This document shows positions 3,215 to 56,329 of a DNA stretch of 64,000 nt, piece after piece. Location of the stretch: NCBI GenBank assembly GCA_050173345.1, contig JBFXKW010000001.1:303911-367910 (forward strand), given 5' to 3'. The notes beneath the pieces are model-generated. The model worked only from the letters and a program-made list of their open reading frames with translations, did no database searches and was not told the DNA's origin. The translations under genes and the position numbers were made by a program. This DNA is from Alphaproteobacteria bacterium (GTDB lineage Bacteria; Pseudomonadota; Alphaproteobacteria; UBA828). The number at the start of each line of letters is the position of its first letter. Within the stretch, counting starts at the first letter, position 1.

Positions 3215-4051
3215 TTGGCCGAACCCCGTCACGTCAGGATCGGCGGCTTCGAGGTCGGCAACGACCTGCCGCTCGCGCTGATCGCAGGGCCGTGCGCGAT
3301 CGAGAGCCGCGAGCATGCGCTCGAGGTGGCCGAGGCGCTGGTCGAGATCACGGCGCGGCGCAAGCTGCCGCTGATCTACAAGAGCTCCTACGACAAGGCG
3401 AACCGCACCAGCCTGAAGGCCGCGCGCGGCATCGGCATCGACGAGGGCCTGCCCATCCTCGCCGAGGTGCGCGAGAGATTCGGCTGCCCGGTGATCACCG
3501 ACGTGCATCTGCCCGAGCAGTGCGCCCGCGCGGCGCAGGCGGTCGACGTGCTGCAGATCCCGGCGTTCCTCTGCCGTCAGACCGACCTGCTGGTCGCCGC
3601 GGCCGAGACCGGGCGGCCGGTCAACGTCAAGAAGGGCCAGTTCCTCGCGCCGTGGGACATGGCGAACGTGGTCGCCAAGCTCGACGCCAGCGGGAACCCG
3701 AACACGCTGCTCTGCGAGCGCGGCGCGAGCTTCGGCTACAACACGCTGGTCTCGGACATGCGCGCGATCCCGATCATGGCGGCGACCGGCTGCCCGGTGG
3801 TGTTCGACGCCACGCACTCGGTGCAGCAGCCGGGCGGGCAGGGCACCTCGAGCGGCGGCCAGCGCGAGTTCGTCCCCGTGCTGGCGCGCGCCGCGGTCGC
3901 GGTCGGCGTCGCCGCGGTCTTCATGGAGACCCACCCCGACCCCGACAAGGCGCCCTCCGACGGCCCCAACATGGTGCCGCTCAAGGCGCTGCCCGCGCTG
4001 CTCGACACGCTGATCGCGTTCGACCGTCTGGCCAAGGGCAGGCCGGCCTGA
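3215..4051 (+). CDS. kdsA: 3-deoxy-8-phosphooctulonate synthase (KDO8P synthase)
   Basis: 278 aa from a TTG start. Contains [10 protein letters not shown] and [11 protein letters not shown], which are typical KdsA sequences. Confidence 0.85.
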
Positions 4052-4087
4052 GCCGCCCATTGCCCCGAATCCGCTGGCGCCCTATAG

Positions 4088-5416
<1,329 letters not shown>

Positions 5417-47031: not shown

Positions 47032-47118
47032 GGATGGGTGGCCGAGCGGTTTAAGGCACCGGTCTTGAAAACCGGCGTGGGTGCAAGCCCACCGTGGGTT
47101 CGAATCCCACCCCATCCG
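47032..47118 (+). tRNA. tRNA-Ser (anticodon UGA), class II with long variable arm
   Basis: Acceptor GGATGGG/CCCATCC, anticodon stem CCGGT/ACCGG with loop CTTGAAA, a long variable arm, T-arm GTGGG-TTCGAAT-CCCAC, discriminator G. Confidence 0.88.
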
Positions 47119-47265
47119 CCGGAAGCTCCTGTGGTCCGCCGAGGCCACTGCATAGCGCAATTGCCTCAGATCGAACGCCACGATGTGAAGCTCCCCAGGT
47201 GCCGCCCGCGCGGTCCAGCGCGCACATGAACGTTGCGGATCGAACCGTCCGAGGATACAAGCAAA

Positions 47266-47352: not shown

Positions 47353-47850
47353 GTGCCAAACGAACGCAATCTGAACCTCTATATCGCCCACCGGCGCAAG
47401 CTGGTGGAGTACGCGAACGGGATCGTCGGCGATCCCGGGCGGGCGGAGGATATTGTTCAGGACGCCTTCCTCAGATTCTGGTCCGCGGCCAGCGGCCGGC
47501 TTCTCGAAGAACCCGTCGGCTATCTTTATCGGGTCGTCCGCAATCTCGCCGTCGATCGCCGCCGCCAGCTGATGCTCGAAGAGCGGCACATCCGCGGCGG
47601 CGCCGAGGAAATAGCCGCCGACGTTCCCGAGGACATGCCGTCGCCGGAGCGCGCGTTGATCGCTCGCCAGGAGCTGCAACGGGTGATGGACGCGATGGCC
47701 GAGCTGCCCGAGCGCACGCGCATCGCCATGGAAATGCACCGCTTCGGCGGCTGCACCCTGAAGGAAATCGCGGAGCATTTCGGCATCTCCGTCTCCATGG
47801 CCCAGGTTCTGGTGACGGAAGGCGTCCGCCATTGCCAGCGCCGTCTCTAG
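47353..47850 (+). CDS. ECF sigma-70 factor, FecI/FoxI-like
   Basis: 165 aa from a GTG start. Region 2 (IVQDAFLRFW and YLYRVVRNLAVD) and region 4 (TLKEIAEHFGISVSMAQV). Confidence 0.85.
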   Translation: MPNERNLNLYIAHRRKLVEYANGIVGDPGRAEDIVQDAFLRFWSAASGRLLEEPVGYLYRVVRNLAVDRRRQLMLEERHIRGGAEEIAADVPEDMPSPERALIARQELQRVMDAMAELPERTRIAMEMHRFGGCTLKEIAEHFGISVSMAQVLVTEGVRHCQRRL

Positions 47851-47986: not shown

Positions 47987-49036
47987 ATGACAACATCGCC
48001 GCAATCCGACCGTGAACGGGCCGAGGACGAAGCGGCGACCTGGCTCGTTCTTCTGTCCGACGCTCCCGACGATGCCGCGTTGCGCGCCCGTTTTGACGCC
48101 TGGCACGCCGCCAGCGACCTGAACGCCGAAATCTGGGCGCGCACCAGCCGCGCCTACGACCTAGTCGGCAAGGGGACGCCTCGGCACGAGGAGCATTGGG
48201 CGTCCTATGCCATCGGACGGGACACCGCCCGGTCGCTGCCGCGTGCGCGTCGTTCTTTTCGCGGTCCGCGGCGGCAAGGCGCACGTTTTTGGCGATGGCC
48301 TGTCTTCACGCCGTGGCGGCTCGGCGTCGGGATCGGCGCGGCGGCGCTCGCCGCCCTGCTGCTAATCGTGATCCTGCCGGGCGTATTGCTGCGCATGGAG
48401 GCCGACGCGGTGACGGCGACCGCGGAGCTGCGCACCATGACTTTGGAGGACGGCACGCGCGTCCAGCTCGCGCCGGAGAGCGCCATCGACGTGGCCTTCG
48501 CGGCCGACGAGCGCCGCGTCCGGCTGCTGAAAGGCGATGTCTTCTTCGAGGTGACGCCAGACCGCGCGCGGCCCTTTCGCGTCGTTGCCGGTGAGACCCT
48601 CACCACCGTGCTCGGGACGGCCTTCGAGGTGCGGCGCGGCGAGGACGGCGCTGCGGTGACGGTCCGGCACGGCCATGTCCGCGTCGAGGACGACAGCACC
48701 ACGCCGCGCACCTCGGAAGAGTTGCGCGACGGCGACTGGGTGCGCGTGACCTGGCGCGGCACGGCCGTGCGCGGCAGCGCGCAGGCGGACGAGATCGCCG
48801 ACTGGGTGCGCGGCGAGCTGGTGGCAAGGGATCGCCCGGCCGGCGAGGTCGTGGCCGCGCTGCGGCCCTACTACAAGGGGGCTATCGTGGTGCGGGACGA
48901 CGCCTTCGCAGGCCGGCACGTCAGCGGCATCTACGACCTGCGTGATCCCGTGAAGACCCTGCGCGATCTGGCCGCCTCCCATGGCGCCGCCGTGCGGCAG
49001 ATTACACCCTGGCTTCTCGTCGTCACGGCCGAATAG
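47987..49036 (+). CDS. FecR/FoxR-family anti-sigma/sensor protein
   Basis: 349 aa with an N-terminal anti-sigma region (AATWLVLL), a TM helix and a periplasmic FecR domain. Confidence 0.8.
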   Translation: MTTSPQSDRERAEDEAATWLVLLSDAPDDAALRARFDAWHAASDLNAEIWARTSRAYDLVGKGTPRHEEHWASYAIGRDTARSLPRARRSFRGPRRQGARFWRWPVFTPWRLGVGIGAAALAALLLIVILPGVLLRMEADAVTATAELRTMTLEDGTRVQLAPESAIDVAFAADERRVRLLKGDVFFEVTPDRARPFRVVAGETLTTVLGTAFEVRRGEDGAAVTVRHGHVRVEDDSTTPRTSEELRDGDWVRVTWRGTAVRGSAQADEIADWVRGELVARDRPAGEVVAALRPYYKGAIVVRDDAFAGRHVSGIYDLRDPVKTLRDLAASHGAAVRQITPWLLVVTAE

Positions 49037-51708: not shown

Positions 51709-51975
51709 ATGGTCGTATTTCTAGCGCTGGCGCTGACCATAGCCGGTTGTGTATGCCTTTACCTCGCCAGCCCCAATCAAAAGTGGCTGGCGCAGGCTCC
51801 TCCCGGAAAGGCTCTGCTCGTGGCGGGGGGTGTGCTGTTGGCGGCTGGCCTTGCCGCATGGATCGCGGCATTGCGGCCCTTGGCTGGCTTCTTCGTAGCG
51901 CTGCATGTTGCGATGGTTTGTCTCTTCGTCTTTCCTTATTCGGCCGCTCTCCGCAGCTTTGGGCGGAAGAATTGA
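51709..51975 (+). CDS. DUF3325-like small membrane protein
   Basis: 88 aa with 3 TM helices. Found in the typical position after a TonB receptor and before a PepSY gene. Confidence 0.55.
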   Translation: MVVFLALALTIAGCVCLYLASPNQKWLAQAPPGKALLVAGGVLLAAGLAAWIAALRPLAGFFVALHVAMVCLFVFPYSAALRSFGRKN

Positions 51976-51976
51976 C

Positions 51977-52270
51977 ATGCCAGGCGACATCCGTCCCGAC
52001 TGGTGGGGCAAGGCCAGCGCTGGGGCTATCCTCGGGCTAGGCCTCGCGCTCTCGCTGGTCGGCCTCTACGCCTATCTGGGGCCGGGGGGCATAGATGCGC
52101 CGGGTGGGCGCTACTCGCTGATGCGCTATCTGGAAGTGTTCGTCTGGATCGCGGTGTTCGGCTTCTGCTTCCTGTTTCGCAGCGGGCGCGCCGCTTGGGC
52201 GTGGCTCGGCGCGGCGAACCTCATCGCCTTCGCGGCGCTGTTTGCCTGTCGCTTCTACTTCTTCGCGTGA
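51977..52270 (+). CDS. small integral membrane protein (DUF3649-like), 97 aa
   Basis: ATG overlapping the previous stop (TGACATG). WW-containing N-terminus and 3 TM helices. Confidence 0.5.
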   Translation: MPGDIRPDWWGKASAGAILGLGLALSLVGLYAYLGPGGIDAPGGRYSLMRYLEVFVWIAVFGFCFLFRSGRAAWAWLGAANLIAFAALFACRFYFFA

Positions 52271-52277
52271 GGGCGAC

Positions 52278-52430
52278 ATGATCCGCGCCGATGTCGTCAG
52301 GCTCTACAAGACCGTTCATACATGGACCGGCATTACTTGCGGCTTTGCGCTGTTCATCGCCTTCTATGCGGGCGCGCTCACCATGTTTCAGGAGCCCATA
52401 GCACGCTGGGCGTCGCCGCGGCGATTGTAG
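52278..52430 (+). pseudogene. 5' fragment of PepSY-associated TM helix protein gene (FoxB-like siderophore-iron reductase family), truncated by IS insertion
   Basis: Starts MIRADVVRLYKTVHTWTGITCGFALFIAFYAGALTMFQEPIARWASP and then runs into the IS inverted repeat. Stop after 50 codons. Confidence 0.75.
52412..52419. repeat. 8-bp target site duplication GTCGCCGC (left copy)
   Basis: An identical octamer sits at 54811..54818 immediately outside the right inverted repeat. Confidence 0.7.
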
Positions 52431-52525
52431 CGTTGACAAACCCACATCGAGTGGTTGGGTGATGTTCAGTGGTTGTCAACCAACGCTTGATAGGAGCTAG
52501 CTGGCACCGCAATATGCGATGCAAT

Positions 52526-52572
52526 CTGACTAGCGAATCGCCGAGCGAATCGCCGAGCGAATCGCTAGTCAG
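52526..52572. repeat. palindrome containing three direct 12-bp repeats of GCGAATCGCC(GA) (iteron/operator-like)
   Basis: Direct read: ctgactagcgaatcgccgagcgaatcgccgagcgaatcgctagtcag. Confidence 0.6.
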
Positions 52573-52597
52573 ATCACGGTATGTGCGGTGAGAGAAG

Positions 52598-52681
52598 TGG
52601 CCCCGGCGGGATTCGAACCCGCAATCCCGGGAAGGAGGGCGATCCCAGATCGCCTGCGGTTACCAGTTTCGCCACGGGGCC
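52598..52681 (-). ncRNA. tRNA-like structure (cloverleaf with anticodon UGG/Pro, C at position 33, 3-bp D-stem, 15-nt class-II-type variable arm); probable pseudo-tRNA or tRNA-derived element inside the IS cargo
   Basis: Minus strand: acceptor GGCCCCG/CGGGGCC, anticodon stem GGCGA/TCGCC with loop TCTGGGA, variable arm TCC-TTCCCG-GGA, T-arm GCGGG-TTCGAAT-CCCGC, discriminator A, no CCA. Confidence 0.35.
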
Positions 52682-52683
52682 AT

Positions 52684-52730
52684 AGAGAGAAAAAGGCCTG
52701 CCACGCCTTTCCAGGGGATCGTGGCAGGCC
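52684..52730 (-). terminator. rho-independent terminator-like hairpin (11-bp stem ggcctgccacg/cgtggcaggcc, 14-nt loop) followed by T-run on the minus strand, immediately 5' of the tRNA-like element
   Basis: Direct read. Reverse complement gives ...cgtggcaggccTTTTTCTCTCT. Confidence 0.45.
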
Positions 52731-52816
52731 CAGTTCAAGGCTAGGTCACTGCCCACTTTCGGGCTGCGAGCGGACTCGGATAAATCCTAGGCCGCCCGAC
52801 TCCGCATGTTAGTACC

Positions 52817-53038
52817 GTGCGGAACTCGGGAACTATGGAGCCGGCCATGTCCAGCCGCAACGGGAATGTTCAGGGAAATAAAGGGAAATTGAGGGAAAAG
52901 GCGCGCTCGGTTGATCGCGCGCCGCCTGATGGACAAACCCGCCGTCGTGCAGAGCCAGTAAGCCTTGCGCCGTTGAAGTTCGAGGAGGCGGTTGGCGGGC
53001 TTCTCAAGGTGAAGCCAGGGCGCCGCAAGCTGGGCTAA
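52817..53038 (+). CDS. small basic hypothetical ORF (73 aa) in IS cargo, immediately upstream of the 260-aa cargo gene
   Basis: GTG start, stop 4 bp before the next start. Basic and low complexity, so coding status is uncertain. Confidence 0.3.
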   Translation: MRNSGTMEPAMSSRNGNVQGNKGKLREKARSVDRAPPDGQTRRRAEPVSLAPLKFEEAVGGLLKVKPGRRKLG

Positions 53039-53042
53039 GCGC

Positions 53043-53825
53043 GTGGCAGACGAGCGGCTGCTTCGGATCGAGCTCAAGAATTCGAAGCCGGTCGAACTTC
53101 TCGACCTGACAAAGAGCCTTTGGGCGCTTGGGCAGGCATACGAGGATTACGTCGCATCAGAGGGCGGCATCACGCCAGAAGGCGGCGTCAAGCTCTACAT
53201 CAAGGAGCTTCGGACCAGCAGCATCATCTCGCTGCTTCAGGAACTCCATGATCAGACGGCATTCCTTTGGGAGCATCGAGATTACCTGAGCCCCTTTCTC
53301 GCTCAGTTCAATGATCTGATTCAATTCTTCCTTTCGGAAACGCCAGCCACCGCGAAGCGAGAACCGACTCGTATTGAAGCCGAGCGCGTTGCGCAGGTTT
53401 TCGAGCCTGTCGCGAAAGATGGCGGGTCACAGCTCATTCTCCAGGTGCAAGGGGACTTGCACATGCCGGTCTACACCTTCAGCGCCGTGCAGGCGAACGC
53501 CGTGCAGAACCAGGTGAGGCGATTCCTAAGCCCGTCGCTCCCGGATCGCCTTGCGTTTCAGCTTGAGCCGATGACGCTCTTTCAGGTTAGGGACGATCCG
53601 AAGAGCCACCACGGCGATCGGGGCGTGATTGAACGGTTCAGCGCCAAAGGTGTTCGGCTGTACTTCTTAAGCGAGGATGCCAAACGAGCGGTTCTCAGCA
53701 AACCTGAGAACCCATTCCATCAGGTGTTCATCGTTGATGGCGAGGTGAAGCTCGCTGGCGGGCGGCCCGCGATCTACTACATTCGGACGGTTCACGATGC
53801 CTTTGACCGTTCCGAACTTGGCTGA
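53043..53825 (+). CDS. hypothetical protein (260 aa), IS cargo gene of unknown function
   Basis: Long ORF with balanced composition and lower GC than the surrounding genome. No recognisable catalytic motif. 3' end overlaps the convergent transposase gene by 34 bp. Confidence 0.5.
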   Translation: MADERLLRIELKNSKPVELLDLTKSLWALGQAYEDYVASEGGITPEGGVKLYIKELRTSSIISLLQELHDQTAFLWEHRDYLSPFLAQFNDLIQFFLSETPATAKREPTRIEAERVAQVFEPVAKDGGSQLILQVQGDLHMPVYTFSAVQANAVQNQVRRFLSPSLPDRLAFQLEPMTLFQVRDDPKSHHGDRGVIERFSAKGVRLYFLSEDAKRAVLSKPENPFHQVFIVDGEVKLAGGRPAIYYIRTVHDAFDRSELG

Positions 53826-54751
53826 GAGTACACAAGCCGCTTGCCTGCCGCCCCCTTGATCGCGCTTAGCGTCCGTTCGCCATCCTTGGCTTTCCGAGAG
53901 TTCCAACGGAACTCGAACTCCCGCAGATAGCGCGGCAAATGCTTCTCGCTGACATGGTGGTAGGAGCCGATCAGGCCACGCTTTAGCAGCGAGTGGTAGG
54001 ACTCGGCGAAGTTGGTATGCAGGATCACGGCGCGAACGTAGTGCTTGGAGTGATCGACGGCGTGGTGAGCCGCAAAGTGCTTATCCAAGCCCTCATAGCT
54101 CATGTGCGCGTCGGTAACGATGGTCGCGGACTTATCGACGATTGGCCGGGCGATCGTCTGTAGGGTCTGCTTTTTCGCGTTCGGGATCACGAAGGTCCGG
54201 GCCTCGCCCTCGCGGTCAACGAGCGTCATAACGGCGACCTTCTTGCCGGCCTTCGCGGTGCGCGCCTTGTGGCGGTTGTTGCTTGCCTTGCCGCCCACAT
54301 ACGTTTCGTCGATTTCGACCACGCCGCCGCCGGAGCCGAGCAGGGAACGCATTGGCTCGGCCTTCATGGCCTCGCGCACGCGATGGCACATGAACCAGGC
54401 GGCCTTGTAAGAGATACCCAACTCGCGCATGAGCTGGTTGGCGGAGACACCCTTGCGCGAGCTGCACATCATGTGGATCGCGTACAGCCACTTGTTGAGC
54501 GGGATATGCGAGTCCTCAAAGATGGTGCCGACGCGCACCGTGAATTGCTTACGGCAAGCGCCGCACTTCTTGAGGCCAAGGCGCTCGCGGCCCTTCTTGT
54601 CCTTCACGCCTTTGAGGACATACACGCGATCAACGGAGCCACAATGCGGACAAACCGGCCCTTCCGGCCACATCTGAGCTTCGATGAACTCAATGGCCGC
54701 AGCTTCGTCGGAGAAGTATCGGGCGAGTTGGATGGTGTTCATGGCGAGCAT
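53792..54751 (-). CDS. IS1595-family transposase
   Basis: 319 aa with an N-terminal zinc-ribbon (CPHCGS...CGAC) and a DDE domain. The similarity is to ISXO2-like/IS1595 transposases (MCSSRKGVSANQLMRELGISYKAAWFMCHRVREAM). Confidence 0.85.
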   Translation of the reverse strand: MLAMNTIQLARYFSDEAAAIEFIEAQMWPEGPVCPHCGSVDRVYVLKGVKDKKGRERLGLKKCGACRKQFTVRVGTIFEDSHIPLNKWLYAIHMMCSSRKGVSANQLMRELGISYKAAWFMCHRVREAMKAEPMRSLLGSGGGVVEIDETYVGGKASNNRHKARTAKAGKKVAVMTLVDREGEARTFVIPNAKKQTLQTIARPIVDKSATIVTDAHMSYEGLDKHFAAHHAVDHSKHYVRAVILHTNFAESYHSLLKRGLIGSYHHVSEKHLPRYLREFEFRWNSRKAKDGERTLSAIKGAAGKRLVYSQPSSERSKAS

Positions 54752-54810
54752 CCCAGTTGATGCCCGAAACCCTACCGGTAGCGGTTGGGTTTGTCAACGA
54801 CATAATCGCC

Positions 54811-56329
54811 GTCGCCGCCTGCCGTGGGTGTGGCAGCGGTTCCTTTGGACGATGCGCCCCGTCTCCTTGAATTGGTTGCCGCCGCGCATCCTGAAGCGCG
54901 GGAGGAAGGTATCAAGCTGCATCTGCGGGGACACGAGAACGAGCCCGCGCGGGTAACTTGGGAGGAGGACGAGCCACACGAGGCGGGTCAGCCGCATGGG
55001 CACGTCCATTGGTGGGCGACGCTCAAGCCTGACGGCACGCTATTGGCGGAGCAGGAGGAGCCGTCCGAACTGGCGGAGTTCATCAATGAAATCCACATGC
55101 GCGTCGGGATTCCAAGACCGTGGGGATCGTATTTCATGGGGGTGGTCTCGCTGCTCTACGGTGTGGCGCTGATCGCCGGCGTGATCGTACTGCTGCCGTC
55201 GCTCGTAAAGGACTTCCTTGCGCTGCGTCTCGGCACGAACCTCAAACGCATGTGGCTGGACGCCCACAATGTCGTCGGAATTACAGCACTCCCTTTTCAC
55301 ATTGCGATGGCGATAACCGCGACCGCATTGAGCCTCAGCGGCGAACTCTGGTCCATGCAGGAAAGTGTTATTTTTGGCGGCAAGCAAGAAATCCTGAACG
55401 AACTCGATAACGAGCCGTTTAGAGCGCCAAAGCCGACCGGCGAGGCGGGTGCAATGATGGCTCCCTCACAGTTGCTTCAAAAACTCAAAGTGCAGGTGCC
55501 CGATTTCGAGCCCCGCTTCATGATCTTCAAGAATATCGGAGACAAAGCTGCTTCGGTGAGAGTCGCCGGAGCCGAACGTGGCTATGTCGGAGATTACCAT
55601 CTTGGGGGCGTCATGCTCAGCGCCGTGACCGGCGAATTGCTCAAAGACCGCACACGTCCATCGCGTCAGGATCCGGATCGTCGAGCGTCAGAGACGTTCT
55701 ACGGCCTGCACGCCGGGCAGTATGAAGGGGCGACGATTACGTGGGCATACTTCTTCCTGGGTTTCTCCGGTGCGTGGCTGTTCTATTCGGGCAACCTCCT
55801 TTGGATCGAGACGCGCCGCAAGAAGGCGCGCAAGGGCGGTGAGGTCAAGCAGTCCCGTTCCACACGCCTCCTGGGCAGCGCGACCGTCGGCGTGTGCCTC
55901 GGCTGTGTGGCGGGCATCTCGCTCACTATCGCCACGACCAAATGGCTGCATGGCCACGTCGCCGACCTCAATCACTGGCACGAGTATGTCTATTATGCGG
56001 TGTTTCTTAGCTCAGTCGCATGGGCATTCGCATGGGGTGCGGCGCGTTCGGCGGTGCATCTGCTGTGGCTGTGCGCCGCCGCGACGATGGCGATCCCGCT
56101 GACGACTTTGCTGGCGCTGTTGTTCCCCGCGCTTGGGATGTGGGCGCATGGCAGCACAGCAACCATCGGCGTCGATGTCGTCGCCTTCATCGGCGCGCTC
56201 TGCTTCGCCTGGATGGCCATCGCTACCACGCGCCGGATCAGGAACGGCCCCACCGATAGCATCTGGTCCATCCGCAAGGCCGACAAGGAATCGTCCTCCC
56301 CATTGCCATCGGCCGTCCCGGCGGAATGA
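54811..56329 (+). pseudogene. 3' remainder of PepSY-associated TM helix protein gene (FoxB-like); could only be expressed as an N-terminally truncated product from GTG 54824
   Basis: Continues PAVGVAAVPLDDAPRLLELVAAAH... with PepSY domains and further TM helices. The frame is contiguous with the 5' fragment once the IS and one TSD copy are removed. Confidence 0.75.

Follow-up and report, generated by a model that had tools for sequence, protein, structure and literature searches.

The last gene of an iron-uptake cluster in an alphaproteobacterial genome (assembly GCA_050173345.1, contig JBFXKW010000001.1) is interrupted by a mobile element of 2391 bp, which belongs to the IS1595 family of insertion sequences (ISs) and carries, besides protein-coding genes, a tRNA gene that combines the body of a leucine tRNA with UGG, an anticodon for proline. 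The element was analysed within a stretch of 64,000 nucleotides (positions 303,911 to 367,910 of the contig, forward strand), which is referred to here as the window. IS1595 elements with passenger genes are already known, and the disruption of a gene by one of them is ordinary; the notable feature of this insertion is the tRNA among its cargo. A cargo-carrying IS1595-family element has transposed into codon 48 of a PepSY_TM gene and duplicated 8 bp of the target, and we propose that its tRNA may act as a suppressor that places leucine at proline codons. The probability of this explanation as a whole, comprising the insertion, the element, the tRNA cargo and the suppressor function, is estimated at about 0.75. 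Its last part, in which the transposon-borne tRNA would be transcribed, charged with leucine and used to insert leucine at CCN codons at a low level, is more tentative, and we would place it somewhat below even odds.

The element lies at positions 52420-54810 between two copies of the octamer GTCGCCGC, which constitute a perfect target-site duplication (Table 1). Its left end, GGCGATTGTAGCGTTGACAAACCCA, and the reverse complement of its right end, GGCGATTATGTCGTTGACAAACCCA, are identical at 22 of 25 positions, and a repeat search returned inverted-repeat (IR) arms of 26 nt with 88% identity. The 14-nt core of the inverted repeat, CGTTGACAAACCCA, has two exact occurrences in the 64-kb window, one on each strand. 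When up to two mismatches are allowed, 0.13 occurrences would be expected by chance, and none of 100 shuffles reached two. The G+C content of the element is 59%, compared to 67% for the window. Excision of the element together with one copy of the duplication yields a 550-aa open reading frame (ORF) reading ...RWASPPAVGVAAVPLDD..., and in a database search the rejoined protein is 85-90% identical to uninterrupted proteins of 548-553 aa with 97-100% coverage. The rejoined DNA aligns without gaps to the uninterrupted orthologous genes of two IS-free loci, L197 and L198, each of which contains a single copy of the octamer at the empty site (ATCGCCGC and GTCACCGC, respectively). The initial annotation had placed a 2391-bp insert at these coordinates, with inverted repeats at its ends, an identical 8-bp repeat on either side and an interruption after codon 47 whose deletion rejoins the frame exactly, and had suggested an alignment of the flanks to uninterrupted orthologues. 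The present results bear it out in each of these respects, the orthologues being colinear with a reading frame that continues across the junction.

The same insertion junctions are found in an alphaproteobacterial metagenome-assembled genome (MAG) contig at NCBI (GCA_050249575.1) and in three independently assembled read sets. An assembly artefact is ruled out because the junctions are the same in these four assemblies. The probability that there was no insertion at all, the PepSY gene being naturally split and the repeats coincidental, is negligible. No point in support of a natural split was found, and it is refuted by the colinear IS-free orthologues with their one target copy and by the exact restoration of the frame; the low chance expectation for the repeats also speaks against it. 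Nor did any orthologue from a close relative turn up that contains these 2.4 kb but no duplication.

The tRNA gene in the left part of the element is 85 nt long. ARAGORN calls it tRNA-Pro(tgg), and it scores 50.3 bits with the Rfam tRNA model and 92 bits with a covariance model of the family described below (R1). Its features are of the leucine type, with a variable arm of about 14 nt, a D-stem of 3 bp, a D-loop reading GCG-AAACUGGUAAC-CGC that conforms to the Leu-type D-arm pattern GCG-AAAYUGGnAnn-CGC, and A73 as the discriminator. By the family covariance model, the body of the window tRNA is indistinguishable from that of a genuine tRNA-Leu(UAG) in locus L086 (2737-2823), which scores 87 bits, equal to the members of the family. 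A single A35G change separates the anticodon UGG from the UAG of this genuine tRNA-Leu. The molecule does not have the form of a class I tRNA-Pro, in which the variable loop has 4-5 nt, given its variable arm of about 14 nt and the presence of G1:C72, not C1:G72, in 35 of 37 family members. Neither does it have a leucine anticodon (NAG or YAA), UGG being found in the window as well as in L022, L280, L281, L283, L284, L226, L245, L258 and L259. A blastn search of plasmids with a tRNA of the family returned only ordinary tRNA-Leu genes at approximately 77% identity, and the identity to chromosomal tRNA-Leu genes is likewise 77%. It should be mentioned that the anticodon loop of the window copy, UCUGGGA, has C33 where tRNAs almost always have U, that CCA is not encoded, and that A13 and C22 are unpaired.

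Two other potential structures surround the tRNA gene. A near-perfect palindrome on the tRNA strand starts 22 nt past the 3' end assigned by ARAGORN, with the left inverted repeat beyond it and no T-run after it; its repeat sequence is not shared with L092 or L022 in the alignment. On the 5' side, a hairpin no more than about 15 nt from the tRNA is also present in L022 (~3660-3700) and L092 (~565-605), with the pairing kept and the stem sequences differing.

The tRNA moves as part of the element, and it is the whole unit that has been transposed. The tRNA gene lies within the 2391-bp insert and is absent from L197 and L198. In the window, L140 (GCGGGTGT), L114, L264 (GGAAAATG) and, approximately, L115, inverted repeats and duplications enclose the elements in which tRNAs of the same family are located. 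In the orientation of the transposase, the order of the element is inverted repeat, transposase, a variable cargo gene and a small basic ORF on the opposite strand, hairpin, tRNA gene and second inverted repeat. The idea that compact elements use the 5' end of the tRNA as their terminal inverted repeat was rejected, since the tRNA 5' region aligned to the far end of 30 elements with scores no better than those of shuffles and proper inverted repeats were found beyond the tRNA in L115, L150, L140, L114, L264, L236 and L259.

Related tRNAs are widespread. A metagenome scan was carried out with a pattern consisting of the Leu-type D-arm and a UGG loop, so that UGG was imposed by the search; at least 120 stretches matched, and 80 loci were analysed. 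Complete cloverleaves of 77-114 nt were found in 66 of the 80, nearly all of them with A73 (64/66) and some with an encoded CCA (19/66). An IS1595 transposase, 31-62% identical to that of the window, is present on the same, often short, contig for 42 of these 66 complete tRNAs. Another 11 of the 80 analysed loci are incomplete chance matches lacking the 3' half, which serve as an internal negative control, with a transposase beside only one of the 11. These were rejected as family members; they include tRNA-Leu genes that look interrupted by introns and an attachment-site fragment in L086. In the latter locus, the genuine tRNA-Leu(UAG) mentioned above is about 2 kb from a duplicate of its 5' half (762-821), an arrangement that resembles the attachment-site scar of an integrative element.

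An alignment of 37 family sequences shows that 97.2% of the cells in paired columns are indeed paired and that 19 of 24 base pairs have undergone double changes. None of 500 shuffles was as good, and no slid register came close. The acceptor stem of 7 bp and the T stem of 5 bp, i.e., a 7/5 geometry, are each 98.8-99.5% paired. All stems have undergone compensatory substitutions, whereas the anticodon has stayed the same across the transposase clade. Judged by its conservation, the tRNA is under selection for the canonical L-shape, for A73 and for the anticodon. The compensation is also seen at the level of a single relative: L022, a truncated relative from a Thalassobaculum MAG that was found through its passenger gene (46% identical), has the same layout and a UGG tRNA with the loop UUUGGAA and an encoded CCA, and its anticodon stem is fully compensated, from GGCGA:UCGCC to CCCGC:GCGGG.

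For tests of the anticodon free of the bias of the scan, we used the closest transposase relatives with usable contigs and viral contigs fetched by the transposase alone. In each of the four closest relatives (transposase identities of 83, 73, 72 and 69%), a Leu-type tRNA with UGG is located 0.2-1.2 kb from the transposase. Their anticodon loops are CCUGGAA, AUUGGGU, GUUGGAU and UUUGGAA, and in three of the four the D-arm or loop sequence falls outside the scan pattern. Among 80 viral loci fetched in this way, eight carry a Leu-type tRNA of at least 60 bits within approximately 0.8 kb of the transposase. Of these eight, four are of the UGG type and two of the UUA type, the latter with an ochre-suppressor anticodon; the remaining two have GGA (reading Ser codons) and an irregular loop, respectively. 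The UUA and GGA tRNAs, which belong to more distant relatives, are located at L243 2145-2232, L264 5132-5214 and L213 4799-4884, and the UUA-type element of L264 has clear inverted repeats together with its 8-bp duplication.

Additional tRNA-like genes were noted beside Leu-type tRNAs in L071 (2265-2339), L093 (2372-2444), L243 (1602-1676) and L264 (4598-4671). The ARAGORN calls are Ala(GGC), Ala(CGC), Ser(GCU) and Gly(ACC), and several of these genes are short or irregular-looking. A second, tandem UGG tRNA is present in L088 (4005-4092), whereas L279 has only a 75-nt Ser(GGA) call (4628-4702) and is without a Leu-type tRNA. In this arrangement the second tRNA-like genes are reminiscent of what Mukai et al. 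(PMC5389517) termed "polycistrons of irregular tRNAs". A prophage-borne relative, L013 (passenger 54% and transposase 44% identical), retains a tRNA remnant at the same position (4463-4532, minus strand), consisting of the T-arm and a 3' acceptor end, CACCUCC-A-CC. A possible 5' strand, GGGGGUG, would give a G3:U70 pair. The remnant scores only weakly, with 22 bits for the Rfam permuted tmRNA model and 27 bits for R1.

We propose the following function for the tRNA. It would be transcribed and matured, and would then be charged with leucine by leucyl-tRNA synthetase (LeuRS). Leucine charging is expected because bacterial LeuRS ignores the anticodon and needs A73 and a Leu-type tertiary core, both of which are present; the charging of tRNA-Leu is described as anticodon-blind (PMC11415595). 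At a low level, the charged tRNA would insert leucine at CCN proline codons and could thus constitute a transposon-borne missense suppressor. Since sister tRNAs with UUA and GGA are built on the same Leu body, codon reading itself appears to be the property under selection. C33, which is found in 12 of 37 family members including the window copy, would attenuate an otherwise toxic tRNA. In yeast, a serine tRNA bearing the anticodon UGG causes mistranslation and is toxic unless attenuated (PMC6827378), and by analogy the frequent C33 could be a natural form of attenuation.

Several observations weigh against this proposal. A terminator-like hairpin ends only 13 nt upstream of the tRNA, and no sigma-70-like promoter was found within the element. 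With C33, no encoded CCA and an unpaired A13/C22, the window copy may be a weak decoder or a non-decoder. G35, G36 and A73 are major determinants of prolyl-tRNA synthetase (ProRS), so some charging with proline is possible. A recoding of the transposase of its own element by the tRNA was rejected: no proline codons were found at conserved leucine positions in a comparison of 27 tRNA-linked with 6 tRNA-less transposases, and no in-frame stops were found in the transposases beside UUA tRNAs. Database records of the exact transposase and passenger proteins come from this one locus only, and a single exact copy of the element was seen in the data covered. Finally, the tRNA is absent in six plasmid-borne relatives with transposases 38-49% identical to that of the window, so it is not needed for transposition throughout the subgroup. 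Its presence in all members of the IS subgroup was rejected on the same ground, together with its occurrence in only 8 of the 80 analysed viral relatives. Because these six plasmid relatives lack it, the tRNA is best regarded as the cargo of one clade and not as a requirement of the subgroup.

An RNA of tRNA shape that does not decode, and is linked instead to cargo of the toxin-antitoxin or defence type, is a possible but doubtful explanation. Such an RNA might serve as decoy or antidote against a nuclease that targets tRNAs, might act together with the small basic protein or with the toxin-antitoxin or defence-type cargo, or might be a signal for processing or insulation that RNase P recognises. 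The frequency of C33 would fit such a role, as U33 is needed for the anticodon U-turn, and so would the irregular loops of some relatives (for example, L236), the conserved hairpin abutting the tRNA and the genes of the toxin-antitoxin or defence type that occupy the cargo slot (SocA_Panacea in L281, Peptidase_M78 in L284, and PIN/VapC in the tRNA-less L193 and L195). Irregular tRNAs near toxin-antitoxin systems have been described as charged but unused in translation (Mukai et al., PMC5389517). However, the conservation of specific, meaningful anticodons, UGG and, in relatives, UUA, is hard to explain without codon reading, and a full canonical tRNA core is conserved along with A73 and, frequently, an encoded CCA. 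The adjacent cargo gene varies, which leaves no fixed protein partner except the small ORF, and the latter is itself found without the tRNA.

Charging by ProRS through G35, G36 and A73 would make the molecule an additional tRNA-Pro(UGG) isoacceptor with an unusual body that causes no miscoding. UGG and A73 are universal in the family, the label given by ARAGORN is tRNA-Pro, and ProRS is generally held to rely heavily on the anticodon. We nevertheless consider this unlikely, because G1:C72 takes the place of the C1:G72 preferred by bacterial ProRS and because sister tRNAs with UUA and GGA on the same Leu body cannot represent extra cognate capacity. The body, the long variable arm and the D-arm are also those of a tRNA-Leu, which LeuRS accepts whatever the anticodon (PMC11415595). 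It is highly improbable that the gene is a decaying fragment of host DNA carried as a functionless passenger. The window copy with its C33 and without CCA, as well as the degenerate remnant at the same position in L013, would be compatible with decay, but covariation with 97% of the pairs intact extends across the family in dozens of independent elements, and elements whose transposases share no more than 40-83% identity have retained the same anticodon.

The Leu-charged suppressor proposed above can be extended from the window copy to its relatives. A large clade of IS1595 elements, common in soil and aquatic bacteria and in their prophages, would then spread anticodon-switched, Leu-charged tRNAs, most often with UGG but also with UUA and GGA, that deliberately miscode host translation by placing leucine at Pro, Ser and stop codons. 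This extension is speculative, and we are inclined to doubt it. Within it, the miscoding might be tuned by C33 and loop variants and might involve cooperation with the adjacent cargo of the toxin-antitoxin or defence type.

The assignment of the element to the IS1595 family in the initial annotation is upheld by the transposase, a 319-aa protein that matches PF12762 (E = 5e-40, positions 4-153 of 153), the zinc ribbon PF12760 (E = 1.4e-10) and NF033547 (E = 8.7e-63). D148, D214, N247, E250 and K257 are all present and are invariant in an alignment of 22 sequences of relatives. Relatives of the transposase number more than 7,500 database proteins at E <= 1e-40, and their source names read only "IS1595 family transposase"; more than 560 relatives lie on viral contigs. 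The element ends have the form GGCGATT(A/G)T...TTGACAAACCCA. Among relatives, the consensus of the end on the transposase side is GGnnATTATnnnnTTGACAnAnCC, which includes a -35-like TTGACA directed toward the transposase gene, and 8-bp duplications are found in L013 (CAGAAATT) as well as in L140 and L264. We presume that the element belongs to the passenger-carrying, ISNwi1-type subgroup, a provisional name that is based on the ISfinder end consensus GGnnATTAT and the presence of passenger genes; the window ends GGCGATTGT and GGCGATTAT fit this consensus, and relatives share GGnnATTATnnnnTTGACA. The initial annotation further considered the element to be probably still mobile. An intact ORF with its catalytic residues, the presence of both ends and the perfect duplication make mobility plausible, although only one copy is visible in the data covered, and a plasmid search found no near-identical copies of the element on plasmids. 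It also described the element as cargo-carrying, but the tRNA gene among the cargo had gone unseen.

The protein cargo consists of two genes. The small basic ORF and the tRNA gene are arranged divergently, and 4 nt separate the stop codon of the ORF from the start of the next gene. Its homologues were found in 29 loci, comprising 27 tRNA-based metagenome loci, the window and L022. They form a family of lysine- and proline-rich proteins of 45-75 aa with C-terminal motifs of the forms GPKPExLKLxGxWxxAVxKALxKKRPxxGWPK and PVSLxPLxFEEAVxGLLxVKP, without a Pfam or NCBIfam match. Small ORFs with a related C-terminal motif, F-x-E-A-x-x-x-x-x-x-x-K-P, follow the transposase in the tRNA-less plasmid relatives L192-L196. 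A role as the partner of the tRNA was rejected on this basis, and the small ORF is taken as a general accessory ORF of this IS subgroup, as the recurrence of the motif suggests.

The second gene encodes a 260-aa passenger protein of phage type. Its conserved family of 186 homologues, which matches phrog_9226, has no Pfam domain, and a confident AlphaFold2 model (predicted local distance difference test score, pLDDT, 85) had no informative structural neighbour. Members of the family stand alone in Brucella intermedia and Sinorhizobium and are common in prophages, where they occupy a moron position between the tail chaperones and the tape-measure gene. In L034 and L046, around 4001-4760, the phage homologues are found in such a typical moron island between the tail-assembly chaperone and tape-measure genes; L046 also has, near the passenger homologue, a gene of the Arc-like type and another that looks like an antirepressor gene by its N-terminal sequence only. 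The family adjoins IS1595 transposases in L013, L021, L022 and L023 as well. In the four closest relatives of the element, the slot between the transposase and the tRNA is occupied by an unknown 174-aa protein, by SocA_Panacea (L281 4644-5264), by an unknown 155-aa protein, and by Peptidase_M78 with a partner (L284 4369-5296). Two of the six tRNA-less plasmid relatives, L193 (4424-5802) and L195 (1713-3114), have PIN/VapC genes with a partner of 266-288 aa instead. The IS subgroup seems to act as a carrier for modules of the toxin-antitoxin or defence type, to judge from the annotation of these slot genes.

The interrupted PepSY_TM gene is the last of a cluster that begins with genes for an extracytoplasmic function (ECF) sigma factor, a FecR-type anti-sigma factor and an STN-domain TonB-dependent receptor. 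The domain matches and the synteny in the IS-free L197 and L198, in which the STN/TonB-dependent receptor is followed by ORFs of 88 and 97 aa and then by PepSY_TM, corroborate the position given to the gene in the initial annotation. The 88-aa and 97-aa ORFs between the receptor and the PepSY gene have no Pfam match. An ordinary tRNA-Ser(UGA) gene is located at 47032-47120 of the window, approximately 230 bp upstream of the ECF sigma gene.

As it stands, the 5' fragment of the PepSY_TM gene is an ORF of 50 aa that stops inside the IS after three foreign codons. The longest remaining ORF of the 3' part has a GTG start at 54824 and encodes 501 aa without the first transmembrane helix. This first helix, which the insertion separates from the rest of the protein, carries the conserved motif VHTWTG, aligned to LHRYVG of FoxB. 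The gene is therefore almost certainly inactivated, and the protein is very probably non-functional, as the remaining ORF begins at an internal GTG.

The FoxB protein of Pseudomonas aeruginosa (PDB ID: 7ABW), which is linked to the utilisation of ferric siderophores, is likewise a member of the PepSY_TM family with an N-terminal helix bearing a conserved His motif, and its gene also lies beside that of a TonB-dependent receptor under the control of an ECF sigma factor and FecR. However, the rejoined protein matches 7ABW only weakly (E = 0.025, 16.5 bits, residues 13-225 only). At 550 aa, it is 170 aa longer than FoxB (382 aa) and has extra C-terminal membrane helices, and its C-terminal region gives a weak PAP2-like match. 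The earlier label "FoxB-like" can thus be retained only at the family level, for which the PepSY_TM match is strong. Given the weakness of the match and the additional 170 aa, a loss of siderophore reduction, with impaired release of iron from the cognate siderophore, is a reasonable inference and no more than that. Disruptions of this kind are routine at the strain level, and this one probably costs the bacterium the use of one xenosiderophore.

Table 1. Positions in the window of the element, its target gene and the preceding genes of the iron-uptake cluster
Feature	Position	Strand	Evidence or remark
ECF sigma factor gene, first gene of the cluster	47353..47850	+	ORF list; Pfam Sigma70_r2 and Sigma70_r4 on the identical gene of L001
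FecR-type anti-sigma factor gene	47987..49036	+	DUF4880 and FecR on the identical gene of L001
STN-domain TonB-dependent receptor gene, 830 aa	49213..51705	+	STN, Plug, TonB_dep_Rec_b-barrel
Two small conserved ORFs	51709..52270	+	88 aa (51709-51975) and 97 aa (51977-52270); called in L001/L002
PepSY_TM 5' fragment, codons 1-47 and first base of codon 48	52278..52419	+	PF03929, E = 3e-10, profile positions 3-39
Left copy of the target-site duplication, GTCGCCGC	52412..52419	.	Single copy in orthologues
Terminal inverted repeat on the side away from the transposase (IRL in window coordinates)	52420..52444	+	Same end type in L092 and L022
Near-perfect palindrome of 51 nt with two 25-nt arms	52524..52574	.	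Three tandem 12-nt units starting AGCGAATCGC; predicted hairpin
tRNA gene, class II tRNA-Leu body, anticodon UGG (Pro)	52597..52681	-	ARAGORN, Rfam tRNA, family model R1
GC-rich hairpin, 11-bp stem followed by UUUUU	52695..52730	-	Ends 13 nt upstream of the tRNA
Small basic ORF, 73 aa from GTG or 67 aa from ATG 52836	52817..53038	+	Ends ...PLKFEEAVGGLLKVKPGRRKLG; homologues in 29 loci
Passenger gene, 260 aa, phrog_9226	53043..53825	+	Family of 186 homologues
IS1595-family DDE transposase gene, 319 aa, intact	53792..54751	-	PF12762, PF12760, NF033547
Terminal inverted repeat beside the transposase	54786..54810	-	Contains TTGACA, a -35-like hexamer, toward the transposase gene
Right copy of the target-site duplication, GTCGCCGC	54811..54818	.	
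PepSY_TM 3' part, last two bases of codon 48 to stop	54819..56329	+	PF03929, E = 5.1e-37, profile positions 83-294

Natural tRNAs in which anticodon and identity disagree are rare, and the known examples have each altered views on the fidelity and evolvability of the genetic code. The same anticodon recurs in every close relative of the window element that was examined, and sister versions have an ochre-suppressor anticodon. If the tRNAs are active, miscoding could be gained and lost by transposition. This would bear on adaptive mistranslation, on the recoding of stop codons by phages and on conflicts between mobile elements and their hosts. The tRNA family may also offer ready-made, naturally attenuated suppressor scaffolds of the Leu type for genetic-code engineering.

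The element shares with cargo-carrying members of the IS1595 family a DDE transposase with an N-terminal zinc ribbon, terminal inverted repeats, an 8-bp duplication and internal passenger genes. It differs in its tRNA: among the papers returned by the literature searches, none describes IS1595 elements with tRNA genes on board, and none reports UGG as the anticodon of a natural tRNA-Leu in bacteria. Disagreement between anticodon and identity is encountered in Streptomyces, where tRNA-ProX, which Vargas-Rodriguez et al. in 2021 and Schuntermann et al. in 2023 are said to have described together with ProRSx, reportedly inserts proline at other codons. Both tRNA-ProX and, as proposed, the tRNA of the window place one amino acid at the codons of another. 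However, tRNA-ProX has a dedicated synthetase and inserts proline, whereas the window element has no dedicated synthetase and would act in the reverse direction. The engineered yeast tRNA-Ser(UGG) has the same UGG anticodon and is tolerated only when attenuated (PMC6827378).

The nearest precedent is the work of Mukai et al. (2017, PMC5389517) on allo-tRNAs and other irregular tRNAs. As in the window, the anticodon of these tRNAs contradicts the identity elements, both missense and nonsense suppressor types occur, and the sequences originate from soil and peat metagenomes. The allo-tRNAs have 8/4 or 9/3 acceptor and T-stems and mostly Ser identity, in contrast to the canonical 7/5 geometry, Leu features and A73 of the window tRNA. 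UGG does not occur in the main text of that paper, which also reports no transposon defined by its inverted repeats and target duplication as the carrier of a tRNA. Compared to the deliberately mistranslating tRNAs, the window tRNA, for which mistranslation is predicted only, is carried on an insertion sequence; the transposon around this mismatched tRNA is a defined one, its ends being proven and the empty site serving as a control.

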